This document shows positions 22,504 to 60,845 of a DNA stretch of 64,000 nt, piece by piece; the stretch's first letter is position 1; every line of letters begins with the position of its first letter. The DNA is from Escherichia coli (lineage in GTDB: Bacteria; Pseudomonadota; Gammaproteobacteria; Enterobacterales; Enterobacteriaceae), in the NCBI RefSeq assembly GCF_030013595.1, contig NZ_CP122768.1; one strand, given 5' to 3'. The translations under genes and the position numbers were made by a program. Under the pieces are notes generated by a model. The model ran no database searches and was not told the DNA's origin. It worked only from the letters and a program-made list of their open reading frames with translations.

Positions 22504-22521
22504 GTCCCGTTCCCTGTGTGA

Positions 22522-22974: not shown

Positions 22975-23024
22975 AATAATATGAGTCCTTTTAAATTAAT
23001 AAATTATTTAATGATGGTTTTTGT

Positions 23025-44453: not shown

Positions 44454-44558
<105 letters not shown>

Positions 44559-44573
44559 TTTAGGTTTCCCTAA

Positions 44574-44579
44574 TATAAT
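44574..44579 (+). promoter_or_regulatory. Candidate -10 hexamer (TATAAT) upstream of the first moron gene
   Basis: Perfect TATAAT about 30 nt upstream of ATG 44610; -35 not convincing. Confidence 0.3.
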
Positions 44580-44609
44580 GCCCCCACAATAACACGAGGG
44601 GGTACAACA

Positions 44610-44996
44610 ATGTTCAATATCATGATTCGTAAATTTGGCGAGATGACTTTCGAGAAAGCTGGTGTTGCTCGTACCGAAGAAGAAGCAATGGCCTTAGTTC
44701 TGGTAGCACTGAGATCATCACCTGAGATTATCGACGCTGAATATGTAGCTGCTGAGGGTGAGATTAAAGAGATTAAAGCGGTGGCTAAGGAATTAGGTGT
44801 TAAAGGTTTCCGTAAGCTGAGATTGAATCGTGAGACTTATGTAATTGGACAGCAAGGACAATACCTAGATGAGAATACCGTGATTGTTCTACTGAATAAG
44901 ATTACCCGCTACGGTTGGAAGATTGAGCAATATAAAACGTGTTTCGAATTATACGAAAAAGGTTTGCTGGATACTCTGACCATCGTTCGCGCTTAA
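44610..44996 (+). CDS. Hypothetical protein, prophage moron
   Basis: 128 aa, strong RBS (gaggggg), own terminator downstream; no family recognised. Confidence 0.6.
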   Translation: MFNIMIRKFGEMTFEKAGVARTEEEAMALVLVALRSSPEIIDAEYVAAEGEIKEIKAVAKELGVKGFRKLRLNRETYVIGQQGQYLDENTVIVLLNKITRYGWKIEQYKTCFELYEKGLLDTLTIVRA

Positions 44997-45010
44997 TTAA
45001 TTTCTAATTT

Positions 45011-45037
45011 GGTGGGTGTAATTCCCACCGCTTTTTA
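45011..45037 (+). terminator. Rho-independent terminator
   Basis: ggtggg tgtaatt cccacc followed by GCTTTTT. Confidence 0.65.
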
Positions 45038-45053
45038 AACTGGAGAATCAAAC

Positions 45054-45134
45054 ATGTTAGCTTTTATCTCATTCGTGGGAGGTAGTCTCACAACTATGAT
45101 TAGTCTTTCTTATCTTGTCGTTAGTATGGGGTGA
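45054..45134 (+). CDS. Small hydrophobic peptide (26 aa)
   Basis: MLAFISFVGGSLTTMISLSYLVVSMG; GGAG RBS; below the ORF-track length cut-off. Confidence 0.3.
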   Translation: MLAFISFVGGSLTTMISLSYLVVSMG

Positions 45135-45137
45135 GCA

Positions 45138-45263
45138 ATGAAACAATTTCATGATGGCATTTCATCTAAGACATTCAAGAAAGAATATAGCGGATTGTGT
45201 ATTAACTGGATTGATTTGATTGGTGCGGTTGTGTTTGGTCTGGTAATTAGCATCAATTTTTAA
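45138..45263 (+). CDS. Small membrane peptide (41 aa) with C-terminal TM segment
   Basis: MKQFHDGISSKTFKKEYSGLCINWIDLIGAVVFGLVISINF; starts 3 nt after the previous small ORF. Confidence 0.35.
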   Translation: MKQFHDGISSKTFKKEYSGLCINWIDLIGAVVFGLVISINF

Positions 45264-45304
45264 CGATATAAATATATCGTAATTCATTCAAAGAGGATTC
45301 AATT

Positions 45305-45646
45305 ATGAAAAAGACTATCTACGCAATTATTGTTTCTGTGTGTGTTGGTGGCATCGGTGGATTTGTTTGTGGGTATGACTATTCCGATACTCAACATCAA
45401 GAGACTATCCGGTCAAATAAGGCCGAGATTAAGGATCTGAATCAGGAGATTAGCCAGTTAGAAAATGCTCTCTCACTCAAAGACAGTGAATATAGCGAGG
45501 TTTATGCAGATAAACAAAAATATTGGAAAGAGAAAGATAATCTCGTTGTTTACGGGATGAAATTGTGTAAGAGCATGAAGGACGAGCGCAGTTGTTTAAT
45601 GGAACTTGCCCTTAAAGGTAACGTGACCATCGACTTCAAAGACTAA
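45305..45646 (+). CDS. Membrane-anchored coiled-coil protein
   Basis: N-terminal TM (IYAIIVSVCVGGIGGFVCG) then coiled-coil-like region; AGAGGA RBS. Confidence 0.55.
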   Translation: MKKTIYAIIVSVCVGGIGGFVCGYDYSDTQHQETIRSNKAEIKDLNQEISQLENALSLKDSEYSEVYADKQKYWKEKDNLVVYGMKLCKSMKDERSCLMELALKGNVTIDFKD

Positions 45647-45675
45647 TTAATTCAAATAACAAAGAGGATTCTATT

Positions 45676-45921
45676 ATGAAAAAGATTATCGCTGGTATCG
45701 TTCTTGCTCTGGGTTTGGTTGGTGCTGCAAATGCCGAACAATATGTACAGGGTGATAGTGTCAAGCGTGCTGCCGTTGCACCTTCTTTAAATCAACTGTG
45801 TACTGAATTAGCACAGGTTGCCGGAGTTGGTGACGATGACGACTTTATTACTGCGTGTGTGTGGAGTCATATCGAGGATATTAATAAACGTGATGCAAAA
45901 CTAACTGGAAAGAAATATTAA
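45676..45921 (+). CDS. Small secreted protein (signal peptide, two Cys)
   Basis: MKKIIAGIVLALGLVGAANA/EQY...; RBS context near-identical to the previous gene. Confidence 0.55.
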   Translation: MKKIIAGIVLALGLVGAANAEQYVQGDSVKRAAVAPSLNQLCTELAQVAGVGDDDDFITACVWSHIEDINKRDAKLTGKKY

Positions 45922-45932
45922 TGACTTACTAA

Positions 45933-45975
45933 CCAATGCCCCTATCGTTATAATACACGGTAGGGGCGTTTTTGT
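45933..45975 (+). terminator. Rho-independent terminator before the recombinase gene
   Basis: ccccta ... tagggg stem followed by CGTTTTTGTTTGG. Confidence 0.55.
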
Positions 45976-45986
45976 TTGGAAATGGT

Positions 45987-47666
45987 ATGAAAACTAAACT
46001 ATATTCGTATATTCGCTTCTCGTCTATGCGTCAGAATGATGGTTCGAGTTATGAACGGCAAATCAGGATGGCGAGAGAGGTTGCGGCAAAGTATGACCTT
46101 GAACTGGTAAATGATTATCAGGATCTGGGTGTATCTGCGTTTAAGGGTGCTAACTCTAAAACAGGGGCGCTATCTCGTTTCCTTGATGCAATTGGTAGAT
46201 CCGTTCCTGTTGGTAGCTGGCTATTCATTGAAAACTTGGACCGCTTATCCCGTGCCGATATTGTCAGTGCGCAGGAGTTATTCCTTTCAATCATCCGTAG
46301 GGGAATAACCATTGTTACTGGCATGGATAACAAGATCTACTCGCTGGATACTGTTACCGCTAATCCGATGGACCTGATGTTCTCCATCCTTCTATTCATC
46401 CGTGGTAATGAGGAAAGTCAGACTAAGCGCAATCGTACTAACTCAAGCGCATTGATTAAGATTAAAGCTCATCAAGAAAATCCCCAGAATCCGGCAGTGG
46501 CAATCGAGGAAGTTGGAAAGAATATGTGGTGGACTGATACCACATCTGGTTATGTGCTTCCTCATCCGGTCTTCTTCCCTATTGTTCAGGAAGTTGTGGA
46601 ATTACGCAGGAATGGACGGTCAACCGCCGAGATACTGGATCACCTTAACGCGACATACACACCACCACCAGCCGCAAGTCACAAGAGGCATTCAAACTGG
46701 TCACGGGCAATGATTGAAAGGTTGTTCCATACCCGCGCTTTGATTGGTATCAAGGAAATCTCTGTAGATGGCGTTAAGTATGAGTTAAAGGATTATTATC
46801 CTCGTGTGCTAGATGACGCTGAGTTTTATCACCTTAAGAAAAGCATTGGTGTTAGAGCATGTAACTATGGAGACAAGGAAGAAGTTAAACCGATCCCCCT
46901 GCTTAGTGGTGTTAATCTGCTGAAATGTGATCATTGCGGTTCCGCTATGGTTAAGGTGAAAGGAACAAACAGACGGCCTAACCAATATCGTTATTCATGC
47001 GATGCAATGCGCTCTAGTCGTATTGAATGTGTGCATACAAACTGGAGTTTTCGCGGCGACCAATTAGAGAAAGCTGTATTGCAATTGCTGGCTGATAAAA
47101 TCTGGATTGCTGAAGATAAGGCTAATCCGGTTCCGGCTTTGAAAGTACAGATTGATGAAATATCACGCAAGATTGATAACCTGATTGCCCTTTCTGCTAT
47201 GACAGGAGCAACGAAGGAGCTAGCCGATCAGATTACTACCCTCAATAGCGAGCGTGAAACACTCTACAATCAGATCAAGATGGCAGAAGAGGAAATGTAT
47301 TCTGTGGACTCTCAAGGCTGGGAGAAGCTCGCAGAATTTGATTTAGAAGATGTTTACAACGAGGATCGCATTAAGGTCCGGTTTAAGATTAAGCAAGCTC
47401 TAAAACGGATCGGGTGTAGCAGGATTGACAAGTACAAAAACTTGTTTGTACTGGAATACATCGATGGCAAGACCCAGAGAGTTGTAATAGAAAATTCAAG
47501 AGGACCGAGGAAAGGCCGGATCTTCGTTGATTTGAAGACTATCAATGATAGGCAGATTCTGGAGAGTAACGGGCTTGTTCTGCATCCATGTTTAGACATG
47601 CTGACAGATAAGAACTGGAAACCAGAAGAGGAAATACCAGGTCCATTACAGGAATTTGGAATTTAA
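45987..47666 (+). CDS. Large serine recombinase (probable prophage integrase)
   Basis: ATG at 45987 (track start 45972 is TTG); N-terminal resolvase catalytic region (LYSYIRFSSMRQ), zinc-ribbon-like Cys cluster, C-terminal coiled coil. Confidence 0.8.
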   Translation: MKTKLYSYIRFSSMRQNDGSSYERQIRMAREVAAKYDLELVNDYQDLGVSAFKGANSKTGALSRFLDAIGRSVPVGSWLFIENLDRLSRADIVSAQELFLSIIRRGITIVTGMDNKIYSLDTVTANPMDLMFSILLFIRGNEESQTKRNRTNSSALIKIKAHQENPQNPAVAIEEVGKNMWWTDTTSGYVLPHPVFFPIVQEVVELRRNGRSTAEILDHLNATYTPPPAASHKRHSNWSRAMIERLFHTRALIGIKEISVDGVKYELKDYYPRVLDDAEFYHLKKSIGVRACNYGDKEEVKPIPLLSGVNLLKCDHCGSAMVKVKGTNRRPNQYRYSCDAMRSSRIECVHTNWSFRGDQLEKAVLQLLADKIWIAEDKANPVPALKVQIDEISRKIDNLIALSAMTGATKELADQITTLNSERETLYNQIKMAEEEMYSVDSQGWEKLAEFDLEDVYNEDRIKVRFKIKQALKRIGCSRIDKYKNLFVLEYIDGKTQRVVIENSRGPRKGRIFVDLKTINDRQILESNGLVLHPCLDMLTDKNWKPEEEIPGPLQEFGI

Positions 47667-47703
47667 GCGGCCTAAATCGACGTATAACGAGCTAAAACAG
47701 TTA

Positions 47704-47727
47704 AGGGGTACAGATGTACCCCTTTTT
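47704..47727 (+). terminator. Rho-independent terminator after the recombinase gene
   Basis: aggggtac agat gtacccct followed by TTTTT. Confidence 0.75.
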
Positions 47728-48245
47728 AATTTAATTGCGTTAGGCAGCGTAAGCAAGTTTCATAGTAGTTTCCTCTAAAATAATAAGTTCACTACTATTT
47801 ATCAGAGAAAATTGTCTTACTATTGCATTCTCTATCTGGATGTGGGTATAGGCGGGATTGAATACGGCAAAACTGAAACATTCCACTACTGCAATAAATC
47901 ACTAAACAATATAAAGAATATTGCAAGTGTGGAGTGGAACTAATGCAAGATATTAAAATTCATTTTCAAGATTACAGTTTCGTTAAGGTTGATTGCTCTC
48001 CTTCTATCGGAATGGAATTAAGAGATTATTTCTCGTTTGAGGTTGAAGGGGCTAGGTTTAGCCCCCGTTACAAGTATTCTGGCTGGGATGGACGAATAAG
48101 ACTGTTTACGCATGAAAACACCCTACCAATTGGACTATTAAAAACGTTGGGTGTCTTCGTTAAAAATATGGGCTATTCAGTCTGGATTGACCCCAGATTG
48201 CTTGAGAAGGAAGATGTAACCAAAGACGCGATTAATGAATGGATT

Positions 48246-48254
48246 GATTCCTTA
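48246..48254. repeat. IS1 target-site duplication, left copy (gattcctta)
   Basis: Identical 9-mer at 49022-49030. Confidence 0.85.
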
Positions 48255-48309
48255 GGTGATGCTGCCAACTTACTGATTTAGTGTATGATGGTGTTTTTGA
48301 GGTGCTCCA

Positions 48310-48585
48310 GTGGCTTCTGTTTCTATCAGCTGTCCCTCCTGTTCAGCTACTGACGGGGTGGTGCGTAACGGCAAAAGCACCGCCGGACATCAGCGCTATC
48401 TCTGCTCTCACTGCCGTAAAACATGGCAACTACAGTTCACTTACGCCGCCTCTCAGCCCGGTACGCACCAGAAAATCATTGATATGGCCATGAATGGCGT
48501 CGGATGTCGCGCCAGTGCACGCATTATTGGCGTTGGCCTCAACACGATTTTCCGCCACTTAAAAAACTCAGGCCGCAGTCGGTAA
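48310..48585 (+). CDS. insA: IS1 InsA
   Basis: [43 protein letters not shown]. Confidence 0.9.
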
Positions 48586-49007
48586 CCTCGCGCATACAAC
48601 CGGGCAGTGATGTGATTGTCTGCGCTGAAATGGACGAACAGTGGGGCTACGTCGGTGCTAAATCACGTCAGCGCTGGCTGTTTTACGCGTATGACAGGAT
48701 GCGGAGGACGGTTGTGGCGCACGTCTTCGGTGAACGCACTCTGGCCACACTGGAGCGTCTTCTGAGCCTGCTGTCGGCCTTTGAGGTCGTGGTATGGATG
48801 ACGGATGGCTGGCCGCTGTATGAATCACGCCTGAAGGGAAAGCTGCACGTTATCAGCAAGCGTTATACTCAGCGCATTGAGCGGCATAACCTGAATCTGA
48901 GACAACATCTGGCAAGGCTGGGACGGAAGTCACTGTCGTTCTCAAAATCGGTGGAGCTGCATGACAAGGTCATCGGGCATTATCTGAACATAAAACACTA
49001 TCAGTAA
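48504..49007 (+). CDS. insB: IS1 InsB reading frame (expressed as InsAB by frameshift)
   Basis: Overlaps insA in the -1 frame; IS1 transposase C-terminal portion. Confidence 0.85.
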
Positions 49008-49021
49008 GTTGGAGTCATTAC

Positions 49022-49030
49022 CGATTCCTT
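49022..49030. repeat. IS1 target-site duplication, right copy (gattcctta)
   Basis: Identical 9-mer at 48246-48254. Confidence 0.85.
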
Positions 49031-50211
49031 AGAAGTGTATTCCGGTAGCAATAAAATCAATCCTTATTGGTATCAAAGGGAGGCAGTCTTTCAGGGTATC
49101 CACAATCGCCGTAGAATGCTGGTTCTTCCTACCAGTGCCGGAAAGTCATTGATTGCTTGTATGCTGTCTCGTTGGTACTTAGAGAACTACACCGGAAAAG
49201 TGTTAATCATTGTTCCGACTACATCGCTAGTGGTTCAAATGAGGGATGATTTCATCGATTATAGGCTATTCCCTTATGAAGCAATTCATACAATGATGAG
49301 TGGTAGCGGGAAACATCCGGGAGACAGGTTAATCACGGTTAGTACCTGGCAATCAGCTTGCAAGATGCCTCCTGAATGGTTCCGACAATATGGAATGTTG
49401 ATAGTTGATGAATCGCATAAGGCTAGTGCCAAAAATATTACCAATATCATCAATGGAATGAATCATTGCCAATTTAAGATCGGCATGACTGGTTCCCCGA
49501 AAGAATCAAAGTGCCATTTAATGCAGTATGTCGGGCTTTTCGGTGATATTTCTAAGATCGTGAGTATTGACCGCCTGATGGAAGAAGGGCAGGTGACAAA
49601 ACTGAAAATTAACTGTCTTTTCCTTCGTTATACAGATGAGGAATGTAGCGCGGTTAAGGGGCGAGAATATGCGGAAGAGATCAAGTATATTACGTCTAAC
49701 CCACGACGAAATAAGTTTGCTTGTAATTTGGCGCTAAAACTAGCTAAGAAGGGCGAAAACGTATTCCTGATGTTCCGCAATACTAAGCACGGAAAACTTA
49801 TGTATGATGCGTTACAGAAGGTACACGACAAGGTTTATTATATTGACGGTGGAGTTAAGACAGAAGAACGTGATGAATTTAAGAAAATGGCGGAGGGTGA
49901 CACCGGGATCATTTGCGTTGCATCCTATGGTGTGTTCTCTACTGGTGTTTCAATTAAGAATTTGCATCATGTTATTTTCGGTCATCCAGTGAAGGAATCA
50001 ACTATCGTTCGTCAGAGTATCGGTCGTGCATTGCGTAAACATGGTTCTAAGGATATTGCAACGGTCTGGGATCTTATAGATCATCTGTGTATATTCGGTC
50101 GTAACGGAAAAGTCAAGCATAAAAATTATGCGGTAAAACATGCACTTGAGAGAATCCGCTATTATCTAACCGACAAGTTCAGCTATGCAACTAAAACAAT
50201 TGCTATATAAC

Positions 50212-50244
50212 AAAAAAGCGCCCACTAGAGGCGCTTTAATTTTA
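50212..50244. terminator. Bidirectional hairpin terminator between the convergent helicase and M15 peptidase genes
   Basis: aagcgcc cactaga ggcgctt, A-run upstream and T-rich downstream. Confidence 0.6.
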
Positions 50245-50595
50245 TCCATTCCATCGTGATTTTTTCGATCTGGAATCGATATGCGTAAAGGTTTTATATT
50301 TGCCTAAGCCGTATTGAGTAGGATATTTCCCATCAAGATAAGCATGGACAATATCAGGGGAGACACCCTTGATCACAATGTCAGCCGCACGGCCTCGAAC
50401 GTGATAGCTGTTGGTTGCACCGCCTACATTCTTGTTATGAGTCGGGCAACGGTTGCCACTGTTAATAATCACTGGTTTACCGAAGTGCTCTCGTACATCC
50501 TCAAGAATTACCAGTAATTCAGCGTCGATTGTATCATAATCACATTTTCCGCATTTACATTTAAATTCCTTGCGAGAAAAATGCTTACTTAACAT
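50242..50595 (-). CDS. Peptidase M15-family (zinc D-Ala-D-Ala carboxypeptidase fold) protein, possible phage cell-wall hydrolase
   Basis: 117 aa with SYHVRGRAADI and HxH-type motif; GGGGG RBS. Confidence 0.6.
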   Translation of the reverse strand: MLSKHFSRKEFKCKCGKCDYDTIDAELLVILEDVREHFGKPVIINSGNRCPTHNKNVGGATNSYHVRGRAADIVIKGVSPDIVHAYLDGKYPTQYGLGKYKTFTHIDSRSKKSRWNG

Positions 50596-50604
50596 ATTAC
50601 CCCC

Positions 50605-50952
50605 TTAGATCATTTCGAAGATATAACCAATAAAGCGCATACCCTTGATATAATAAGGAGCAGTGCCTACACACACCGCGCGTGCATCGCCCAGACAGTT
50701 AAAGCTATAAGGATTAACTACATCGACTTCTTGCCCTACACGAAAACGATATTTAGGACGTTTAGCCAATGTAGCGACACAAAACACGGTCCCTTTTTCA
50801 TGATCGCGGATACATTCTTTATATTGTTTATGTTTAACTCTCTTCGCCTCAAAATCATGTGTCATGGATTCTGGGCTAATGCCATTGATAAAAATACCGG
50901 AAAGCTGGTCGACCGGATAAGTAGGAAATTCAGTAAAAATATTTTTAGCCAT
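50605..50952 (-). CDS. Hypothetical phage protein
   Basis: 115 aa, GGGGG RBS, no recognisable family. Confidence 0.5.
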   Translation of the reverse strand: MAKNIFTEFPTYPVDQLSGIFINGISPESMTHDFEAKRVKHKQYKECIRDHEKGTVFCVATLAKRPKYRFRVGQEVDVVNPYSFNCLGDARAVCVGTAPYYIKGMRFIGYIFEMI

Positions 50953-50990
50953 GTTATACCCCCATAAGATTCTATGAGGGTATTTATTGA

Positions 50991-51674
50991 TTAAACGTAT
51001 TTCATGCGCGATTTAATGTGCTTATTGATGTTTTCAAGCATCATTGCTTCGTTGCTTTCCCACGATCCTAGCGTCGAATAACGAGTAGAAATTTTATCCG
51101 ACTTAACGGCAACAATTCGCTTACTCTGTTTCTGTATGCGTTTCTCTAAGCGACGTTTTGCCACCGCCGATCCATTCTTAGCGCGTTTGGTTCGGGATTT
51201 CTTAGGCTTGTACTTCTTCATGATAAAAGTCCCTTCCTGGTTCTCTACCTTGATGAAGTTGCCATTTTCGATGTTACGCATCATCTTACCGCCTTTGATG
51301 GCCTTAATGTTCCCGTGGGCGTCTAAGACCTTACCGTTGGCAATTGGCACTAGCTTATTGATTTTGCCACCATCGAAATAGTGTTTCAGATAGTCATCCT
51401 GACTGCCGATCTTCTTGTCCTTATCCCTTGCGCCCTTGATGAAGATTTGGTGTCTCGTCCCTGAACGGTTCTTGTAGTTGGTATTACCTACAGCTTGTTG
51501 AGTCCAGCGAGTAGGTCTATCAACATTCTTGTTAATCTTCTTCTGGAGTGCTCTGGAAGCAAAGATCGCCCCTTCCCCTATCGCCTTTTCGAATGTATCG
51601 GTTGCTTTATCAGACCATTGGCGTAACGCTTTCTTAGTCCTTAGAGCGTTTCGTTTATTGGTACTGGTTGCCAT
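50991..51674 (-). CDS. Highly basic hypothetical phage protein
   Basis: 227 aa, Lys/Arg-rich C-terminal half; GGGGG RBS. Confidence 0.5.
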   Translation of the reverse strand: MATSTNKRNALRTKKALRQWSDKATDTFEKAIGEGAIFASRALQKKINKNVDRPTRWTQQAVGNTNYKNRSGTRHQIFIKGARDKDKKIGSQDDYLKHYFDGGKINKLVPIANGKVLDAHGNIKAIKGGKMMRNIENGNFIKVENQEGTFIMKKYKPKKSRTKRAKNGSAVAKRRLEKRIQKQSKRIVAVKSDKISTRYSTLGSWESNEAMMLENINKHIKSRMKYV

Positions 51675-51675
51675 G

Positions 51676-51846
51676 TTAGCCCCCTAATAACGAAAAGACC
51701 CCCGCCAGTGTCCTTAGCAATTGTTCATCCACGGTCATAGCCGGGAGTTCAAGCCCAAAGGACGTTAGCAGAGGTCTAATTGCTACGTTATAAGTGAGGG
51801 CGACAATCAAGAGATAACCAAAATATTTCTTAAGTTTATTCTTCAT
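51676..51846 (-). CDS. Small membrane protein (56 aa)
   Basis: ATG at 51846 with GGGGTG RBS (track start is TTG); one TM segment. Confidence 0.4.
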   Translation of the reverse strand: MKNKLKKYFGYLLIVALTYNVAIRPLLTSFGLELPAMTVDEQLLRTLAGVFSLLGG

Positions 51847-51865
51847 ATATTCACCCCTTTTATTA

Positions 51866-52144
51866 TTATTTTTGTCTGAGTAAATCGATAACTTGGTCAA
51901 ATTTAGCGTCCATCGCAACCACTTTCTTTTCTATACCGTGAAGGGTTTGTTCCATGCGATAAACTCTCTCGGCGATCTGGTCGTGGTTATTCTGCATTGT
52001 TTCAAACTTCTGATTAAACAATGCATCATTGGACTCTAATTTCGACAATCTATTTTCTGTGGCTAATTGATTTCGGTGAAGTCTCCATAATCCACCACAA
52101 ATTAAGGCGATAACACCGATACCGCCATATATAATTTCAGTCAT
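51866..52144 (-). CDS. Membrane-anchored coiled-coil protein, holin/spanin-like by architecture
   Basis: N-terminal TM (IIYGGIGVIALICGGLW) then coiled coil. Confidence 0.45.
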   Translation of the reverse strand: MTEIIYGGIGVIALICGGLWRLHRNQLATENRLSKLESNDALFNQKFETMQNNHDQIAERVYRMEQTLHGIEKKVVAMDAKFDQVIDLLRQK

Positions 52145-52249
52145 TACGCCCCCGATATTTTTATATAGTTTAATGGCAAAATTATTTAGATAAAAATAAT
52201 CCCGCCTAACTCAAAAGAATTAAGCGGGATTTATTATTAAAATTAAATT

Positions 52250-55200
52250 TTAAGAAACAGTAATACCGGTAGTTGCTTTTTTAGTTACCATTACCGTTAA
52301 ATCACTGATCCATGTGCTAGGCGTCCAGTTGTTGATTGCGCTTGATTGCACTTCAAAGGTCAAGGTCACAGCACCCTTACCCGCTGGCATATCAATAACA
52401 CCTGAGTAAAGACCAGTATTACCGCCATACGCCCTATTATACAACTCTGACCCATTCTTACGAACAATCAGGCGACAGGTGTCGTAATAGGTATTATTGT
52501 TCGACCCTTCACGCGCTCGCAATCCACCAAAACTAACAGCCGGAATAACGATTTGACGATCGAACTTGTGATCATCTTCAACGCGAACAGTGACCGTACC
52601 TTGTGGATAGCCAGCATAACCATTATCAACGTTAACATCACGATGCGGGAACTTACGTCCAATCACCTTAACGAAATCACCCTTAACCTGAGTAGCTTCA
52701 AGCATACCCTTAATAACACAGCTAGAGTTAATCGTGACGTTGTTCAGAGTACCAGAATCGGCAGTGATATTACCTTTAACGGTTGCATTCATGAACGTAG
52801 CGGACCCGTTCTTGTTGATATGCCATCCGGTAGATCCGTTCCAGTCGGAAGACTGGATATAGTTACCAATTTTAGCGTTATCAATTGCGCCATTTACAAT
52901 CTTGGCGTTGGTGATCGCGCCGTCTTGGATTTTCGCTGAATTGATCGCAGCATTGCCAATTTTAGCCGTGGTGATACTAGCATCAGTAATCTGTGCTGAT
53001 CCGATTGAGGCATTACGAATCATGGCACTGTCGAGATAAACCTTGTTACCTTCGATACCAAACGGGCATACTTCCGATCCGTTCTGTGGAGCTACCGCGA
53101 TTTTATCAGCATTAAAGATGATTCTCGTCGGTTGCGCCGGATCGTTGGTTGCGCTCATGTGAATACCAGCCACGCGACCATCTGCATTAACTGCCAGATT
53201 ATATTTGCTGTTAATGGTTCCTTTCAAAGCATCGATTTTTACATCTGCTTCCTGATTCACGCCAGCAATCTTGCCATCCATTTCTACCCGAACTTGATCA
53301 ATCTTGCTTGCGCTTGCTGCCTCACTGGTAGCAATTGCTTGTTTCAGGGTAGTAGCAGATGCGCTGACTTCGGATTTAATATCGCCTTTCAGTTCAGCTT
53401 TAACCTGATCAATCTTAGTGGAGCTAGCTTGCTCGCTGGTAGCAATCAGACTCTTTAAGGTATTGGCTGAGGCTTGGACCGTCTGCCCTGTTTCGGTAGT
53501 GATTTGCTTATGCATTGCATCAATTTTAGCATCGGCATTAGCGCCAGCTTGAGCAATAGCATCCGCGATAGTTTCATCTAAGCGGTCTTGTAAACCAATC
53601 AGGTCTTCCAGTGCTTCTTTGTCCTGATCGTCCCAGCTAATTGTAGATCTCATTTGCATGAAATAAGGTTCAGACCAAACAGCATCATCCATACCGAAAA
53701 TATCGTAGTGAGCACCACGGATATAATAATCACCGTCAGCAATATCAAAGGAAGTATGGCTAACACTATTCGTGCTTACTGCCCTTGCATCGGAGAAAGT
53801 GTTATCGGTTGCATACTGGATGATTGACCCTGCATAATCATGTTCTACGTCATCTGCCCAGCTAACAAACACACTATTAAAGCCACCACGCGCACTAAAA
53901 CCTTTCATTGGCTTATGTTGTGGGTTGATAGCCACTAAACGCGCTGGGGCGCTCTCTGAGTTGTTATAGCCCTTAGCCGATACTTCTACCGTCAGTTGAC
54001 GCGAAAGGCCGTTAAACTGGTTCATATCAAGCGTATAAGTCCATGATTCAGGATCGCGGGTACGGTACTGAATAGACTTACCAGCCTTGTTAGTCACCTT
54101 GATAATGTATGCTTCAAACAGGTCACTAAACTTGTTAGTTTCACCGTTGATCTCAACATCTAATTGTTGCTGATTTTCCCATTCGATAATCAGATCATTA
54201 CCTTCGAAAGTTCCTGGCGTGCTACCCTGATTTTTGATTCGAATAACCGGAGTCGGCAATTCATAGGTAACAGTCGGATTCTGGTTAATCAGTTCTACCC
54301 ACTCGGAACGAGCAATAATACCGAAAGCACAAACTCGGTAATCATAAGAGCGATCTTTCGCCAGTGCATTGACACTGAAAATTTGCTGTGAAGTCTGTCC
54401 CAGCTTAATCCAGTTAGGCGATCCGCTTACACGGTAATCAATCTGGAAACCATAACGGTTAAAATCTTCCGGTGCATCCCATGTCAAAGTAACGTTTTTA
54501 CCGTAAATCGTCTCACCAGTTGCCTTAATCCTGAAATTAGTAGGCTTCTGTACTGTCATTGAATCCGGTAAACCACTTGGTCTATTGTCTGGAGTTGCCG
54601 CATAGTTCAGGTCAGTATAAACCTGAGAATTATATTCTGTGGCGGTGATAGTCATCATCCCAGCAATACCAGAATCAATCGAGCGATCAATTGCAGTAAT
54701 ACGCCATAAGGAATTATTCAGCTTCAATTCATCATAGGTTACGCTGATAACGTCCCAAACTTCGGCAGTGAATGCGTCAGTAGTCATAAAGCTGATAACC
54801 TGAGTGATACGAGATTTATTTCGCTCAATGCTCGCGAGTTTATCAATCTGATCTTTAGACTTAACAAAACGATATTCAATATCTTTAGCGATAATTCGAC
54901 CATCTTGACGAATAGTAGCATCGTTTTCAGCATCAGCCGGATAACGTAGCATTTGCTCTGAATAGTCAATTGATGGTTCTTGATACATCGCGTTAATGGT
55001 ATTGAAATAACCGTTAGTGCCACCTGTTTTCAGTGATACCTTACCCATCATGATATTGTCTTCATTGAAGGTATGCTTAACAATATCAGGAGCATCCAGT
55101 TTCAGCGTAATACGTCCAAAGGATTCGAACATCACCCCGCCGAAAGTCTGCATAAGATTAGTCAAGTTCTCTTTAAAGCTGGCGTTCGGATCACATGCAC

Positions 55201-56026
55201 CGTTTGAATGTAGATCCATCTGGCGTACTTGTTTACGTACTTTCAGGAATGAATCAACGTTAATGTTTTCAATTGGTACAGATAAGCCATATTTTTCATT
55301 TGTTAGGTAGTGGAAAATCTGGTCCACGCCGTTAGTGCTAGCCTCAATAGCATTAGTTTCAAGGTTACGAATCTTTAAGCCCATAACATCGACTGCTACC
55401 TGGCTATTTGGCTGGAGAATATCAACACCAGCAGCAAGAGATTTGTCATCACGACGTAACACAATACACATGGTTGCAATACCATTGCCTTTGTAGTTGT
55501 CGTTCCAGTCTGATCCTAAATGACGTTTTGCCAGTGACAAAGCGGTGTTAGGATTCTTACCCGTGCGAAACTCAACTTCTAAAACTTTCCGGTATTCTTC
55601 TTTAATGTTGCCTTTGTCCAGTACACCATCACGGATCGTCATGTTCTTACCAACAAGAACATTTTTGTTATCGATAAACAGTGCTTTGTAATGGTCGATT
55701 TCACCCTCGGCAATTGCGAAGATTTGCACTAACTTATTGTTTTCTTGCTTAGAAATTGCTTTGTAAACGCAGATTGCACCCGTGCGGGTAGTACCAAAAA
55801 GAACGGGTAATACTGTCTTCGGATCGTTTGATGTTCCTAGTGTCACCGCATTATCTGGGCTTTGTACTTTCGGTGTTTTTGGTGCGCCTACAGTGGAAGC
55901 GATCAAGGTCATTGCACCAGCAGCCATACCGATAGCGACTGCGGTCATAACCGAAAATGTTGCGGCTGCCGCCATCCCCGCCGAAGCACCAGCAATAACC
56001 GCGCCTACCAATACTTCAAATCCCAT
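52250..56026 (-). CDS. Host-specificity / central tail fibre protein (lambda gpJ-like)
   Basis: 1258 aa; C-terminus colinear with lambda J (GTLNNVTINSSCVIKGMLEA...VIDMPAGKGAVTLTF...), fibronectin-III-like middle; unusual hydrophobic N-terminus. Confidence 0.8.
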   Translation of the reverse strand: MGFEVLVGAVIAGASAGMAAAATFSVMTAVAIGMAAGAMTLIASTVGAPKTPKVQSPDNAVTLGTSNDPKTVLPVLFGTTRTGAICVYKAISKQENNKLVQIFAIAEGEIDHYKALFIDNKNVLVGKNMTIRDGVLDKGNIKEEYRKVLEVEFRTGKNPNTALSLAKRHLGSDWNDNYKGNGIATMCIVLRRDDKSLAAGVDILQPNSQVAVDVMGLKIRNLETNAIEASTNGVDQIFHYLTNEKYGLSVPIENINVDSFLKVRKQVRQMDLHSNGACDPNASFKENLTNLMQTFGGVMFESFGRITLKLDAPDIVKHTFNEDNIMMGKVSLKTGGTNGYFNTINAMYQEPSIDYSEQMLRYPADAENDATIRQDGRIIAKDIEYRFVKSKDQIDKLASIERNKSRITQVISFMTTDAFTAEVWDVISVTYDELKLNNSLWRITAIDRSIDSGIAGMMTITATEYNSQVYTDLNYAATPDNRPSGLPDSMTVQKPTNFRIKATGETIYGKNVTLTWDAPEDFNRYGFQIDYRVSGSPNWIKLGQTSQQIFSVNALAKDRSYDYRVCAFGIIARSEWVELINQNPTVTYELPTPVIRIKNQGSTPGTFEGNDLIIEWENQQQLDVEINGETNKFSDLFEAYIIKVTNKAGKSIQYRTRDPESWTYTLDMNQFNGLSRQLTVEVSAKGYNNSESAPARLVAINPQHKPMKGFSARGGFNSVFVSWADDVEHDYAGSIIQYATDNTFSDARAVSTNSVSHTSFDIADGDYYIRGAHYDIFGMDDAVWSEPYFMQMRSTISWDDQDKEALEDLIGLQDRLDETIADAIAQAGANADAKIDAMHKQITTETGQTVQASANTLKSLIATSEQASSTKIDQVKAELKGDIKSEVSASATTLKQAIATSEAASASKIDQVRVEMDGKIAGVNQEADVKIDALKGTINSKYNLAVNADGRVAGIHMSATNDPAQPTRIIFNADKIAVAPQNGSEVCPFGIEGNKVYLDSAMIRNASIGSAQITDASITTAKIGNAAINSAKIQDGAITNAKIVNGAIDNAKIGNYIQSSDWNGSTGWHINKNGSATFMNATVKGNITADSGTLNNVTINSSCVIKGMLEATQVKGDFVKVIGRKFPHRDVNVDNGYAGYPQGTVTVRVEDDHKFDRQIVIPAVSFGGLRAREGSNNNTYYDTCRLIVRKNGSELYNRAYGGNTGLYSGVIDMPAGKGAVTLTFEVQSSAINNWTPSTWISDLTVMVTKKATTGITVS

Positions 56027-56445
56027 TATTCACCCCCGAATCTATAAACTTGTTCATAGTCAATGTCTGAAACAGGAATGGTCATCCAGATACCATCTTC
56101 TTCAACGAGGCCATAACCGGAATAATGAGGAACTACGGAATAATAATTACGGTTTCCTAATTTGTGGGCTGTGACCAGTAAGTCGCCGTCCTGTAAATCA
56201 TCAGTGACTAATTTGAAATGTTTCTTAATTGGTTGAAGGATATTTGAATACCCGCTTAATTCTTTGCAGATTTTCAAACCTTCTTCTTTAGTTGAATATT
56301 TTTTATAAAGAGAATTATATAGGTCAGTACCAGCGAGAATATCGATGATCTTACATGCAATTAGATTGCAATCATTCTCACCCTGAACGAACTCCTGACC
56401 TATTAAAGAATTGATGTAATCGGTGATAAGCCTAGTTTTTAGCAT
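56026..56445 (-). CDS. Minor tail protein (gpI/gpK-position tail assembly protein)
   Basis: ATG at 56445 with GGAGG RBS (track ORF extended upstream to 56601); precedes J-like gene with 1-nt overlap. Confidence 0.45.
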   Translation of the reverse strand: MLKTRLITDYINSLIGQEFVQGENDCNLIACKIIDILAGTDLYNSLYKKYSTKEEGLKICKELSGYSNILQPIKKHFKLVTDDLQDGDLLVTAHKLGNRNYYSVVPHYSGYGLVEEDGIWMTIPVSDIDYEQVYRFGGE

Positions 56446-56491
56446 GTTGAATACCTCCATGCTGTTATTTACTAGGCTTAGGGAGAAGGGA

Positions 56492-57145
56492 TTATTTCTT
56501 CGATGAATGCCACTTGCTTTCGCTATTCCACTTCCCGGCTCGGGAGAAGAATAGATCGTTCTCGTTTCCGGCATAGGAACGGTGGATACCATCGGAGGCA
56601 TGACTACGAGCGTTTTTATCTAGAACTTCCCAGATACTATTAAGCTGAAATTCTGATTCGTTTTTACACTCATCATCTTCATGTTCGATGTTAATCCCGA
56701 TGGAATCGACTACCCCACGGAAAACAGGGTAAGTAGTTTCAACCTTGCCCGTGTTGGGGTTAAGGAAAACCATCTCGATTTTCACATCAGATTTATCGAA
56801 TTGCTTGTTTCGAATTAGGGTAATGTATTCTTCGCGAACGTTAGAAACGGTTACGTTAATCCCGTTGTTGTTGATCTCCTTCTCTTCGGTATTCGATGAG
56901 ATTTGAAGAAAATCACCCGTTGCGAGATACGTAAATCCGTTATAGTCCAAATCGAAATACCCATCTGTAAGCCGTAGAACGTCCCCTGACGCTGTTATCA
57001 CTTCGATAATGTGAAACATCGATCCAGTGGAAAAAAGCTGCGGTAGCGTCAATCTAGACACGTTCTGACCTGTCTGGTCGTTGTAGACCTCGATGAAGTC
57101 CAGATTAGTGCATAGTTTGCTGAATGATTCTTGAATAGTTGCCAT
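56492..57145 (-). CDS. Minor tail protein (gpL-position)
   Basis: 217 aa between distal tail gene and J-like gene. Confidence 0.45.
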   Translation of the reverse strand: MATIQESFSKLCTNLDFIEVYNDQTGQNVSRLTLPQLFSTGSMFHIIEVITASGDVLRLTDGYFDLDYNGFTYLATGDFLQISSNTEEKEINNNGINVTVSNVREEYITLIRNKQFDKSDVKIEMVFLNPNTGKVETTYPVFRGVVDSIGINIEHEDDECKNESEFQLNSIWEVLDKNARSHASDGIHRSYAGNENDLFFSRAGKWNSESKWHSSKK

Positions 57146-57705
57146 TATACATTCTCCACTAATTCAAATTTCATCTTGCCAATCTGGGCGATCTTCCAAT
57201 CGATATTTTCAGTTTTGAGAACAAATTCACCTTCTACGTTTTGATACTTGATCACCTCACCCGCCAGGACGTTTTGACGCAAGTTAGGGAAGAGTTTCAT
57301 TTCACCACCTGATTTCACGTCTTCGGTGATCGTGTAGATTTTCTTGTGGTTCTCAAACTGGATGATAGTTCCTGCTTTCAGTGTTCCGGTGAAGTTGGAG
57401 AGTCTCACCTTACGCCCACCGCGAGCAGTACCAGCAGCAGCCGTTACCATCTGGCGTACATCACCTGTATATTTTGAAAAGTAAGACAGTGGCACATTGA
57501 AAGGACGACCAAAAAGGTGACGTGCTACAAATTCTTTTACTTCGTTAATATCCTGAGCCATGTAATTCGCGGTAAATTCTGCTTCGTAAAAATGGATGCC
57601 AGTAAAGCGACGCTGGAACTTACCAGAAATAGATTGCGCCTTAAAGAAAGGCTGTTTTGATTTAAGAGTAAAATCTGTGATTTTAATATTCTTGGATTTG
57701 AACAT
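57145..57705 (-). CDS. Minor/distal tail protein (gpM/Dit-position)
   Basis: Directly downstream of tape measure gene; probable start ATG 57705 (track start 57720 lies in a hairpin). Confidence 0.45.
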   Translation of the reverse strand: MFKSKNIKITDFTLKSKQPFFKAQSISGKFQRRFTGIHFYEAEFTANYMAQDINEVKEFVARHLFGRPFNVPLSYFSKYTGDVRQMVTAAAGTARGGRKVRLSNFTGTLKAGTIIQFENHKKIYTITEDVKSGGEMKLFPNLRQNVLAGEVIKYQNVEGEFVLKTENIDWKIAQIGKMKFELVENV

Positions 57706-57756
57706 AGAAAAGCCCCCCATAGTTTTATGATTATTTATGACTATGGGGGCTTTTAA

Positions 57757-60111
57757 TTACATCTTACGGCGTTGTGCGTCTTCTACCGCCTGAGCAACTA
57801 ACTTAGCGTGACGTTTGATAGCATCCATGACCATCTTGTCTGAGCTATTAACGTTGCCGTTAATGTTCAAAGGCGCATTAACTTCAATCGGTTGAGAGTT
57901 GCCACCGCCTGATTTTTGAGCAGCAAGGAAGTCTTTCAAATCACCGTTAGTACGCTGATCAACTACTCGTTCACCCTTATCAAGCAACCATGTACCCTCA
58001 CGAGGGATGTTATCAATACCATCATGAGCCATACCGCTAACGTTAGTAGACTTGATGTTGGCGATGCTCCCCATGTTCTGAGAAACAGCCAATGCAGCAG
58101 CCGCGATTTTTTGACCTGTGGTTACGTTGGTCGGATCGTTCCATGCATCGGTAGCAGCCGTCCACATGTTCACCGTCGCTTGTCCAATAGAGAATGCTTT
58201 ATGAGCAGTGAAAGCCATCTGCATAGCTTTAGTGTTTTCCTGCCCGAAGAGAGTCATTGCAGCAGCAAAACCGCCATACATATCATCAGCTATTGACTGA
58301 CGAGCATCAGCATATTTCTTCTCAATTGCAGCCATTCGTTTTTGATGGTTTTCATTGAGTTTTTCTAATTCTTCCATCCGTTTAGCCGGATCGGTGATCC
58401 CATCAATCTTGATTTTACCGGTCTTATAATCTTGTTCCGCTTCCGATTTCTCTTTATCGATTGCATTAAATTTAGCAAACGGATCATTTGGATCTTGATA
58501 GTCTAAGCTATTGGTCAACTGATTGGTTTTAAAACCATCCATTCCATGCAAAGAATCTTCAATCTGTGAATAACTTTGCTCGGTATCATTCACACGACGC
58601 ATATATTCTTCGTAGGAGATAGCTTTACCATCAAGTAACCGTTTATGGCTTTCTAACTCGTTGTCCCTGATTTGTTGCAAAACTGTTAAGGCATTCAAAG
58701 CATCAACCGGATCAGCACCCAGCATCATTTTATAGATGTTTTCTGCGTTCTGGTCTAACAGTTGCTGACGTTTAGCGGCTGCGTCTTGCTGTGAGATTAA
58801 GCCCAGATCTAAAGCAGTGTCCAAATCTTTCAAGCTGGCTTCTAACTGCTTGTTTTGAGAAGCAATAGACGCGGCTGTCTGTCCTTGCAATTTAACATCA
58901 AGAGCATTCAGTCGCTTGATTGCATCCTCGCGTGCTTTCTGTGCTTTTTCTGCGGCTTCCTTAGCCTTTTTAGCTGCCTCTTCCGCTTTCTTCTTGGCTT
59001 CTTCTTGTTCTTTTTTTGTTGGACCAGTGACGCCTCCACCTTGACCCGTTGGGGTAAATCCAGTATCCGATTTATTTCCAGTGATAGTAATTACCGGATC
59101 GCCGTTTTTATCACGGGTAACTCCTTCACTATCCACCCAACGATCAGGATAATTTGGTTTATTGTTGAAGCTGGCTTGTCCACCTGCTAGACCAGTAGAA
59201 CTATAACCATGCTTGTTAATAAAACCACCGTTAGCCATAGCCATATTCTGGCGAGCTTTTTCAAACCTTTCATTAAACGTCTTTAATGCGTTGAATAAAG
59301 CGGTCTTTTCCCAATCTTTATCAAACCAGTTGTATAACTTGTTCATCCCTTCAACAACTGGATTTAGCGCATTTGCTGCCATACCCTTTAAGTTATCGGT
59401 AAGGGTATCCATATTTTTAGAGAATTTATTATATTCTTCGGCTGTATCATTGGTGATTTTAACAGTTTGCTGATTAATGGCGTTTACAGCTTCCTGATAA
59501 GATCCGTATTTCTGCAATTCATCAGCCATATGACTTGAATCACTGGCTAACGATTCCATCATAAACTTAACATCAGCGATAGACGCACCAGCCTTGCGCA
59601 TATCATAGAAGACCTTGATTGCCGCTTTCATCCCGCCTTGTGGATCGTTCATAAACTCGGCATAATCTTTAATCTTCAAACCTACACTTTCTAGGTCGTC
59701 TTCAATACCGCCACCGTTACGCCATGCATCAGCCAGTTTATCTAAGGTGTCTTTGTTAATATCACCAAATTTCTCAACGGTTAAGCCAGTGCCAGAGAAT
59801 TGCTTCTCTAATTTCTGGAGTGTTTCGACGGTTAAACCAGTTGCTTTTGAAACTTCGCTGTATTCCTTTACATAATCACCGATGGCATTTGCAGCAGAGA
59901 CAGCACCAGCAGCCAGACCAACAAAACCACCAGCAGCCAAAGCAAGCGATCCACCAGTTCCGCGAAGGGTTCCACTTAAACTAGATAAACCACCAGACAA
60001 ATCAAGATTCATTGCCCTTTCTGAAAGGTTATCAAGCATGTCAATCGCTTGGTTGGTACTTCTCCTTAGACCGTCGTTATTCCCTTCTATTGTTACTATA
60101 TGTCTTGTCAT
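57757..60111 (-). CDS. Tail tape measure protein
   Basis: 784 aa, long coiled-coil/Ala-Lys-Glu-rich regions (EEAKKKAEEAAKKAKEAAEKAQKA), Gly-rich segment. Confidence 0.8.
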   Translation of the reverse strand: MTRHIVTIEGNNDGLRRSTNQAIDMLDNLSERAMNLDLSGGLSSLSGTLRGTGGSLALAAGGFVGLAAGAVSAANAIGDYVKEYSEVSKATGLTVETLQKLEKQFSGTGLTVEKFGDINKDTLDKLADAWRNGGGIEDDLESVGLKIKDYAEFMNDPQGGMKAAIKVFYDMRKAGASIADVKFMMESLASDSSHMADELQKYGSYQEAVNAINQQTVKITNDTAEEYNKFSKNMDTLTDNLKGMAANALNPVVEGMNKLYNWFDKDWEKTALFNALKTFNERFEKARQNMAMANGGFINKHGYSSTGLAGGQASFNNKPNYPDRWVDSEGVTRDKNGDPVITITGNKSDTGFTPTGQGGGVTGPTKKEQEEAKKKAEEAAKKAKEAAEKAQKAREDAIKRLNALDVKLQGQTAASIASQNKQLEASLKDLDTALDLGLISQQDAAAKRQQLLDQNAENIYKMMLGADPVDALNALTVLQQIRDNELESHKRLLDGKAISYEEYMRRVNDTEQSYSQIEDSLHGMDGFKTNQLTNSLDYQDPNDPFAKFNAIDKEKSEAEQDYKTGKIKIDGITDPAKRMEELEKLNENHQKRMAAIEKKYADARQSIADDMYGGFAAAMTLFGQENTKAMQMAFTAHKAFSIGQATVNMWTAATDAWNDPTNVTTGQKIAAAALAVSQNMGSIANIKSTNVSGMAHDGIDNIPREGTWLLDKGERVVDQRTNGDLKDFLAAQKSGGGNSQPIEVNAPLNINGNVNSSDKMVMDAIKRHAKLVAQAVEDAQRRKM

Positions 60112-60114
60112 AAA

Positions 60115-60465
60115 TTACCCCGTTTGTGCGCTTCTGAGTTTCTCAAGCAAAGATGGATCGAACATGTTCAGCATTGCCGCTTTACGTTCTTCTTCTTTCT
60201 TGCGTGCAATTTCTTCCAGTTCTTCTTTAGTTTTAAAGAGTTTTTCTTCTCTAATTAATTGGAATTGGCTAGGCTTGAGTTTGCGTGCAGTTTCGCGAGT
60301 CATTCCTTGTGACGTCATATACATGGAATATTGCAACATCGCATTCTGCATATCATGAAACGCGGGGCTTTGTGGTTCTAAGTAGGTGTCGAAAATGTAT
60401 AATTTCCAAAACAGAGTGATTGGCATATTATCCATTTCATCTTTACTAAGCCCCGATCGCATCAT
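60115..60465 (-). CDS. Tail assembly chaperone, T-like frame
   Basis: 116 aa immediately upstream of TMP; its frame is open across the stop of the preceding gene. Confidence 0.45.
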   Translation of the reverse strand: MMRSGLSKDEMDNMPITLFWKLYIFDTYLEPQSPAFHDMQNAMLQYSMYMTSQGMTRETARKLKPSQFQLIREEKLFKTKEELEEIARKKEEERKAAMLNMFDPSLLEKLRSAQTG

Positions 60466-60494
60466 TTGCCGGAAATAGAAATTCAGAAGCGGGT

Positions 60495-60803: not shown

Positions 60804-60845
60804 TCTTGTTTCCTCTTAAGTTAATTCGATATGTTTATTTAGAAT

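Follow-up and report, generated by a model that had tools for sequence, protein, structure and literature searches.

A Five-Gene Block Behind the Tail-Tip Gene of an Escherichia coli Prophage Appears to Mix Virion and Lysis Functions

In a temperate siphophage prophage of Escherichia coli, five small genes behind the tail-tip gene on balance appear to form the 3' end of the late (virion and lysis) operon, with the two functions mixed in one block. The prophage is about 36 kb long and is present in 54 of 5426 complete E. coli genomes. In the window, which is the whole analysed stretch of 64,000 nucleotides, the block consists of five tightly packed minus-strand genes running from 52144 to 50242. 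They directly follow a gene for a 1258-aa J-like tail tip/host-specificity protein (52250–56026, minus strand), the last recognisable tail gene before the block. This protein matches Pfam Ig_GpJ_C (8.2e-34) and Phage_Tail_Tip (9.3e-19), as well as PHROG tail fiber families. The sequence-only reading had described five same-strand genes at 50242–52144 adjoining a tail module, and all five open reading frames were recovered at exactly these coordinates. It had also put the peptidase gene first. The common strand was confirmed, but since the genes lie on the minus strand, the peptidase gene is transcribed last and not first. A block of this kind at the end of a late operon is an ordinary arrangement.

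In the order of transcription, the genes encode g92 (51866–52144), g56 (51676–51846, counted from the ATG start), g227 (50991–51674), g115 (50605–50952) and g117 (50242–50595), the numbers giving the protein lengths in amino acids. A GGGG-type Shine-Dalgarno sequence precedes each of the five genes. Where dS is unsaturated, dN/dS is 0.06–0.23 for all five, which indicates purifying selection, and the five-gene order is retained in diverged prophages of E. coli, Salmonella and Providencia. Thus, these are real genes and not chance open reading frames. A megablast search of phage and plasmid collections with the block gave zero matches, and a distant blastn search of phages returned short matches to the peptidase gene only. 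A PADLOC search was negative for all five proteins, which makes a defence system unlikely.

To the left, the block is closed by a bidirectional terminator-like hairpin (50215–50237, scan of both strands) that would end both the late operon and a convergent helicase gene. Another hairpin, resembling an intrinsic terminator, lies on the minus strand between the J-like gene and the g92 gene (52198–52231), where the scan found a 15-pair stem followed by the T-run ATTTTTATCT. According to the alignment, six relatives, Providencia among them, retain this hairpin, and bases have changed in both of its arms. The scan gave no sigma-70-like promoter between the hairpin and the g92 gene, and the number of such sites in the region is no higher than in shuffled sequences. 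In the proposed scheme, late transcription would continue through the conserved hairpin and cover all five genes. The hairpin could also isolate the block from the late transcript, and it counts against the one-transcript view.

The last gene encodes a 117-aa single-domain Zn peptidase of MEROPS family M15A (Peptidase_M15_3). The sequence-only reading had recognised an M15-family peptidase by the motif SYHVRGRAADI. It turned out that this motif occupies residues 63–73 of g117 (50377–50409 of the window), and that the protein matches Pfam PF08291 (Peptidase_M15_3) over profile positions 1–108 of 108, with 96.7 bits against a cut-off of 23.2 (E 1.1e-27). The Zn-ligand pattern H65-x6-D72...H105 was found in g117, and residues 31–73, the region of the H-x6-D motif, align to the DD-carboxypeptidase 1LBU. 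The endolysin family phrog_894 is matched at 1.9e-45. In an NCBIfam scan of the five proteins, the only match was a weak one to MepK, on the peptidase. The closest named relatives are endolysins of SP6/K1E-like podophages (Molineuxvirinae), such as gp50 of Escherichia phage VEc3 and gp47 of Proteus phage BigMira-UFV01. Like g117, these annotated endolysins are full-length single-domain Peptidase_M15_3 proteins of 113–117 aa with the same H-x6-D...H pattern, and g117 is 60–64% identical to them over its full length. In the lytic SP6-like podophages, tiny genes with holin and Rz-like spanin annotations come immediately after the endolysin gene, whereas the g117 gene would close the late operon of a temperate siphophage, after two tail-type genes.

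By its description, the peptidase M15A endolysin of Burkholderia phage ST79 is also similar to g117: it consists of a single PF08291 domain and has HxxxxxxD plus a distal His (PMC5025407). Zymograms and turbidity assays show that it breaks down E. coli peptidoglycan; it is longer than g117 (149 aa predicted) and is encoded together with a holin, lysB and lysC (PMC5025407). The annotation of the 36-kb prophage contains no second lysin, and none came up when most of its unnamed proteins were scanned against PHROGs. Judging from these similarities, g117 is almost certainly the endolysin of the phage, with a predicted role in lysis. It would act as a soluble Zn-dependent peptidase that cuts the peptide part of peptidoglycan. 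Neither a signal nor a transmembrane (TM) segment was found in g117. In the absence of an export signal, g117 would remain in the cytoplasm and would have no access to the wall until the inner membrane has been breached.

A cytoplasmic endolysin requires a holin. The small TM proteins encoded with the endolysin in the late operon are g92 and g56, the sole small membrane proteins conserved in it. The sequence-only reading had noted an N-terminal TM segment plus coiled coil in one of the small proteins, and this holds for g92: a hydrophobic segment at about residues 3–20 is followed by a strong heptad pattern. In the heptad test, 15 of 19 a/d positions are hydrophobic; shuffled sequences averaged 9.7 ± 1.1, and in 2000 of them the observed value was never reached. 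The TM segment ends in GG[LF]W. Among 34 full-length homologues, none has K/R before the TM segment, where D/E average 0.88, and the 12 residues after the segment hold on average 2.0 K/R. By the positive-inside rule, this predicts an N-out/C-in bitopic protein with a cytoplasmic coiled coil. Homologues of g92 were found only in E. coli, Salmonella and Providencia prophages. Proteins with the g92 architecture and the same charge distribution occupy the same position in two IMG/VR relatives (L041 and L042) and in the record DCP80. Searches of Pfam and PHROGs gave only weak profile matches to g92.

The 56-aa protein g56 has a basic N-terminal tip (MKNKLKK) and a short C-terminal tail, and its single TM segment carries a conserved [YW]-N...P motif. 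Its hydrophobic segment is weak by the Kyte-Doolittle scale and passes with the 15-residue window only. The N-terminal flank carries 3–5 K/R, so that an N-in topology is predicted. Diverged homologues of g56 take the same position in L041, L042 and DCP80. No Pfam match was obtained for g56, and three members of its family match phrog_2024, a family with no assigned function, at 4e-4 to 8e-3.

Neither protein has a significant match to any holin or spanin family of Pfam or PHROGs. The best lysis-labelled matches are marginal and come from distant homologues only (E 1e-3 to 0.1); the best holin match among the homologues is phrog_1296 at E 0.092, and no Pfam holin was matched. The two proteins are nevertheless the best holin candidates of the prophage, and we regard this role as a serious possibility, given that they are the only small membrane proteins of the operon and that the genes are tightly packed and have strong ribosome-binding sites. 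The candidate holin is g56, and g92 is a candidate holin partner or regulator. According to this scheme, the membrane breach would be made by g56 and/or g92. The N-in g56, whose single TM segment contains the conserved Asn and Pro residues, would form the hole, and the N-out g92, with a Gly-rich TM segment and a cytoplasmic coiled coil, would be its partner or a timing regulator of hole formation.

The xepA-xhlA-xhlB-xlyA genes of Bacillus subtilis PBSX resemble the block in that they lie at the end of the late operon, just after the tail genes (PMC6834076). This lytic region encodes a soluble protein of unclear role, two small putative holins, one of which is essential for lysis, and a wall hydrolase (PMC6834076). 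PBSX differs in having a Gram-positive host, and no meaningful sequence similarity to the block was found. The best match, to a 'hemolysin' PHROG, has E 0.024 and comes from one distant homologue. In XhlA the TM segment is presumably C-terminal, in contrast to the N-terminal segment of g92.

It is possible, if rather doubtful, that g92 and g56 are not lysis proteins and have another function, late or lysogenic, that belongs with the tail end of the operon, for example keeping out the DNA of related phages or tethering assembly to the membrane. In that case, a gene elsewhere would encode the holin. The distant relatives speak for such a function. L041 and L042 carry both membrane genes together with the gpZ-like and β-barrel genes and have no adjacent endolysin gene, and the endolysin in the DCP80 record is of a different, T4-lysozyme-like type. 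Since the endolysin is absent nearby or different in these records, the membrane genes co-segregate with the tail genes (the J-like gene and the gpZ-like pair) and not with the lysin. DCP80 was considered as a T4-like relative and rejected, because the record looks chimeric. When the membrane proteins of the distant relatives were used in tblastn against phages, only the DCP80 record itself was found, and a concatenated g92+g56+g227+g115 query matched only the g227/g115 pair, in DCP80. The missing holin profile match is also consistent with a non-lysis role, and the conserved terminator between the J-like gene and the pair is reminiscent of a moron layout. However, no sigma-70-like promoter precedes the g92 gene, and only 1 nt separates the g56 stop from the g227 start, which implies one operon with the virion genes. 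A candidate for a holin gene elsewhere does exist: the prophage has one further small multi-TM gene, which encodes a 94-aa three-TM protein and adjoins the small terminase gene (TerS), outside the window. But only 30 of the 54 block-carrying genomes have a detectable copy of it, and its product has no PHROG match.

The two genes between the membrane pair and the endolysin gene belong to a different group. The sequence-only reading tentatively took the five genes for one lysis-related cassette; the peptidase does prove to be a phage endolysin homologue, but g227 appears to fall into the λ gpZ/HK97 gp10 tail-completion family and g115 is its constant partner, so that these two do not fit as lysis genes. 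No TM segment was found in either protein. Alone, g227 (minus strand, pI 10.6, 55 K+R) has no Pfam match and reaches phrog_1924 at E 1.4e-3. Of the 31 relatives found with its profile, 16 match phrog_1924, 7 match phrog_27, and 4 match Pfam Minor_tail_Z, where a single one exceeds the gathering score. The hhalign comparison of the close and the distant g227 sets gave 98.8%. In the predicted fold, long N- and C-terminal helices surround a small β-sheet, as in the gpZ/gp10 family, and the best fold match of this model is a tail completion protein of the gp10 family. Among PDB sequences, the profiles of g227 and g115 had no meaningful match. At the profile level, homology through intermediate sequences points to g227 being a relative of λ gpZ, HK97 gp10 and SPP1 gp16.1, the tail-completion (Neck1) family described in PMC11784142.

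Several features set g227 apart from these relatives. It is longer and has basic, lysine-rich insertions, and its gene stands after the tail-tip gene at the end of the operon, and not between the head genes and the tail terminator/tube genes. Tail-completion (Neck1) genes are usually found between head and tube genes (PMC11784142). None of the prophage genes between capsid and tail tube has a Neck1 or tail-completion match, and therefore g227 may fill an otherwise empty slot. Departures from the usual placement exist, since p143 of T5, a member of the tail-completion class, is placed at the tail tip and not at the neck (PMC11784142). Alleles of g227 are swapped between near-identical prophages, with 34% identity against 85–93% in the neighbouring genes. 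Such allele swapping is unusual for a core structural protein and counts against the tail reading. The 115-aa partner is a small β-barrel that always accompanies and follows the gpZ-like gene, and it is probably a virion tail or neck protein. Thus, g227 and g115 are probably virion-assembly proteins and not lysis proteins: they would be built into the tail or help to finish it, and would take no part in lysis.

A further question is whether the block encodes spanins. The spanin-like architecture that the sequence-only reading saw in g92 is disfavoured by the acidic N-terminal tip, the basic residues after the TM segment and the lack of a lipoprotein partner in the prophage. Similarly to Rz-type i-spanins, g92 has an N-terminal TM segment and then a coiled coil, and its distant homologues give marginal Rz-like PHROG matches. 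However, a type II i-spanin is N-in with a periplasmic coiled coil, and the charges of g92 predict the opposite topology by the positive-inside rule. In addition, λ Rz is much longer than g92 and relies on periplasmic Cys residues that g92 does not have; the sole Cys of g92 is within the TM segment and is not conserved. The search for an o-spanin gave no credible lipobox open reading frame, whether in the block, in the whole prophage of UTAK-14 (NZ_CP168998), whose helicase gene is intact, or at positions 44500–64000 of the window; scans of all frames gave implausible antisense frames only. A unimolecular spanin needs a lipoprotein signal and a C-terminal TM segment, and neither g56 nor g92 has a lipobox. 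No spanin was found in the prophage.

The lack of a canonical spanin could suggest a cassette of five genes dedicated to lysis, with g92 as an i-spanin or holin, g56 as a holin, and g227 and g115 as new accessory factors of lysis, e.g., outer-membrane disruptors that replace the missing o-spanin. The strongly cationic character of g227 and the Rz-type architecture of g92 are consistent with it, as are the weak Rz-like spanin matches of distant g92 homologues (phrog_739, E 1e-3 to 6e-3). Lytic cassettes in late operons may also hold soluble proteins of unclear role, such as XepA of PBSX (PMC6834076). Nevertheless, such a cassette is improbable: g227 appears homologous to tail-completion proteins, the 34 g92 homologues point to a cytoplasmic coiled coil, opposite to that of an i-spanin, the only g92 Cys lies in the membrane, and no lipobox frame is embedded, overlapping or nearby. 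It is very improbable that g117 is a virion-associated wall-digesting entry enzyme encoded with the tail proteins, as its place next to the tail module and at the end of a run with tail-completion-type genes might suggest, because it is a bare catalytic domain without a structural domain, resembles annotated endolysins whose genes stand beside annotated holin and Rz-like genes, and is the only endolysin candidate that turned up in the annotation of the prophage and in the PHROGs scans of most of its unnamed proteins. The DUF6950 protein adjoining the J-like protein, checked against PDB sequences as a candidate tail-borne wall peptidase, gave nothing.

We can also propose, as a speculative and rather unlikely extension of the mixed virion and lysis block, that g92-g56-g227-g115 is the conserved terminal module of an undescribed temperate siphophage lineage with T4-type recombination genes. 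Its two new bitopic families of opposite topologies would make up a spanin-less holin system, and the relocated gpZ-like protein with its β-barrel partner would work at the tail tip and not at the neck, as has been proposed for T5 p143.

In RefSeq E. coli genomes carrying the prophage, the four genes upstream of the peptidase gene are named 'hypothetical protein'. The main value of this analysis is therefore better annotation: g227 can be annotated as a tail-completion homologue of the gpZ/gp10 type, and the peptidase as the endolysin. If g56 and g92 prove to be a holin system, two small holin-type families would be added, along with a further Gram-negative phage that lyses its host without recognisable spanins. 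Such a system would be useful for catalogues of lysis genes and would bring no conceptual surprise.

Five co-directional minus-strand ORFs, named here by the length of their products in amino acids, fill positions 50242-52144, as the sequence-only reading had observed. In the order of transcription they are g92 (52144..51866), g56 (51846..51676), g227 (51674..50991), g115 (50952..50605) and g117 (50595..50242). The peptidase gene, which had been placed first, is therefore the last of the five. A GGGG-type ribosome-binding site is present 5' of every ORF, and the intergenic gaps are 1–38 nt. Upstream of the block lie the gene of a 1258-aa J-like tail-tip protein and then a strong terminator-like hairpin (52231-52198). 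This hairpin is kept from E. coli to Providencia, both arms carrying changes, and a scan found no promoter-like site downstream of it. We infer that the block is transcribed by read-through of the late transcript past the hairpin. A bidirectional hairpin (50237-50215) separates the end of the block from the convergent helicase gene. The five-gene order is conserved in diverged E. coli prophages, Salmonella and Providencia (in the latter g92 is 48% and g117 is 62% identical), and dN/dS is 0.06–0.23 for all five genes where synonymous sites are unsaturated. Judging from these sequences, the five ORFs are real genes.

Of 5426 complete E. coli genomes, 54 carry the block on the chromosome, with 80% or more of it covered at 51 of these places. 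There was no near match in phage and plasmid collections. In E. coli strain UTAK-14 (NZ_CP168998), the block belongs to a prophage of about 36 kb inserted in ycdX, which encodes a large serine recombinase as well as a UvsW-like helicase. Its single late operon starts with the large terminase, continues with the portal, capsid, fibre, tube, tape measure, distal tail, hub and J genes and ends with the five block genes. In the window, positions 1-44574 are ordinary E. coli chromosome (rhs, narZ/narU ... ydcR), and the same prophage type starts at ~44575, adjoining ydcR, and occupies 44575-64000. The serine recombinases of the two prophages (564 aa in the window, 559 aa in UTAK-14) are related; since the prophage lies at ydcR in one case and inside ycdX in the other, related recombinases use at least two integration sites. 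The helicase gene, intact in UTAK-14 (496 aa), is interrupted in the window (context 47934-50210) by an IS1 copy at 48255-49022, which leaves ORFs of 115 and 391 aa. The left inverted repeat begins at 48255, and the 9-bp target duplication GATTCCTTA is at 48246-48254 and 49023-49031. Because of this split, the window prophage may be replication-defective. T4-type recombination genes are present in this ~36 kb temperate siphophage type (window 47934-50210; related loci L006, L008, L010 and L011), with Pfam UvsW_N, UvsW-1 and UvsY matches in different relatives, beside the large serine recombinase. Between the hub and J genes, the minus strand (56026-56445) encodes a 139-aa DUF6950 protein with an 'ENDC' motif. 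It has no match among PDB sequences; a tail-borne cysteine peptidase, comparable to the wall peptidases in certain tail tips, is one possible identity.

Homology searches confirmed the M15-family peptidase: g117 aligns over the full length of Pfam Peptidase_M15_3 (96.7 bits) and hits phrog_894 'endolysin' with an E-value of 1.9e-45. The residues H65-x6-D72 and H105 are present, and the H-x6-D motif region aligns to the Zn DD-carboxypeptidase 1LBU. A tblastn search matched 548 phage records, the best being SP6/K1E-like podophages with 60–64% identity over the full length. In these phages the homologue bears the annotation endolysin, and the tiny genes after it are labelled holin and Rz-like. 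The single-domain PF08291 enzyme of phage ST79 degrades E. coli peptidoglycan (PMC5025407). The prophage annotation lists no further lysin, nor was one detected by PHROGs scans of most unnamed proteins. Thus, g117 is very probably the endolysin of this prophage. No hydrophobic or signal segment was found in g117; as a cytoplasmic enzyme it would need a holin.

The two small membrane proteins noticed earlier, one of them with an N-terminal TM segment and a coiled coil, are g56 and g92. In g92, a Gly-rich TM segment with a GG[LF]W end precedes a heptad-repeat helix; g56 combines a basic tip, a single TM segment bearing the conserved motif [YW]-N...P and a short tail. Both families were found only in these prophages, and neither protein gave a significant match to a holin or spanin family. 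Since a holin is required and the late operon encodes no small membrane proteins other than g92 and g56, the holin reading remains the most economical for these candidates, and we hold it tentatively, at a little under even chances. It is rather unlikely that the pair does something else, such as exclusion or assembly. The only alternative holin candidate is a 94-aa protein with three TM/hydrophobic segments, encoded outside the window (L002, a related prophage locus, 9317-9601, minus strand) directly downstream of a small terminase homologue (phrog_57, 5.6e-11); its gene was detected in 30 E. coli genomes and the block in 54. The earlier spanin-like reading of g92 is disfavoured by its sequence, because all 34 full-length homologues have no basic residues before the TM segment and a mean of two after it, a pattern shared by distant relatives from which a coiled coil on the cytoplasmic side is predicted, opposite to that of an i-spanin, and no lipobox ORF was found in the block, the UTAK-14 prophage or the prophage part of the window. 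A second TM and coiled-coil protein (113 aa, 45305-45646, plus strand) is encoded on the attL side. Its basic N-tip places it in the N-in/C-out type, and it weakly matches an Rz-like spanin (phrog_739, E 0.0024). The 81-aa product of the next gene (45676-45921, plus strand) carries what looks like a cleavable signal peptide. UTAK-14 lacks the 113-aa gene, for which no lipobox partner was detected; this gene may be cargo, serve exclusion or encode a lone i-spanin-like protein.

The two proteins described earlier as unknown members of a lysis cassette, g227 and g115, point instead to the tail. The very basic g227 (pI 10.6) has few close relatives. A profile built from these and g227, searched against 1.8 billion representative proteins, retrieved 37 proteins at a whole-library E <= 1e-3. 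Among 31 aligned members, 16 matched phrog_1924 (minor tail protein; down to 7e-51), seven matched phrog_27 (tail completion or Neck1) and four matched Pfam Minor_tail_Z, one of them (P0095) above the gathering score. A profile-profile comparison of the close and distant sets gave 98.8% probability (E 4.9e-17). Since these matches also agree with what PMC11784142 describes for tail-completion proteins, g227 is probably of the gpZ/gp10 type. No match to this family turned up among the small genes that separate capsid from tube, so g227 may fill the tail-completion role from an unusual genome position. It is only 34% identical between prophages whose neighbouring genes are 85–93% identical. The window gene (50991-51674) is 33–34% identical to its counterparts in the related loci L010 (6001-6600) and L012 (6001-6684); the flanking genes are 85–93% (g92, g56, g115, J) and 76% (g117) identical in L010, and 65–83% in L012. 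Such mosaicism suggests that g227 alleles were replaced by recombination between prophages. The g115 gene always follows the gpZ-like gene. Its predicted model is a small β-barrel (pLDDT 80.9), and its weak matches are divided between PilZ barrels and phage tail-tube, hub and stopper barrels. By its context, g115 is presumably a virion protein.

Three distant relatives were compared: bases 1-26,300 of GenBank PQ671644 ('phage DCP80') and the IMG/VR contigs L041 and L042. After J, all three carry genes for a TM and coiled-coil protein, endonuclease VII, a small g56-like protein, a gpZ-like protein and a barrel protein. The membrane ORFs of DCP80 (22472-22933 and 23411-23584) are unannotated. 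The run is followed by a T4-lysozyme-type endolysin in DCP80, by opposite-strand genes and a recombinase in L041, and by tail chaperones and a tape measure gene in L042, which argues that the four genes are not tied to a particular endolysin. Judged by this gene order, g92, g56, g227 and g115 are a conserved unit linked to the operon's tail end. The endonuclease VII gene (DCP80 22959-23426; L041 5347-5829; L042 5335-5826) has no counterpart at this position in the prophages of E. coli, Salmonella and Providencia. The segment with the chaperone, tape-measure, distal-tail and hub genes is inverted relative to J in L041 (9738-10957, minus strand) and displaced in L042 (6944-9980, plus strand), owing either to misassembly or to a rearrangement of the genome close to the serine recombinase. 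The DCP80 record (PQ671644.1, 'Escherichia phage DCP80'; loci L015/L043), filed under Tevenvirinae, looks chimeric. Its bases 1-26,300 are collinear with the late operon of this prophage and the remainder is T4-like; rIIA and spackle each occur twice, the rIIA copies in opposite orientation.

The proposed lysis cassette thus stands in part: the endolysin supports it and two probable tail proteins do not. The block is probably a mixed end of the late operon, made up of two candidate holin-type membrane proteins, the two probable tail proteins and the endolysin. This adds modest value to the annotation of such prophages, and its general interest is low.
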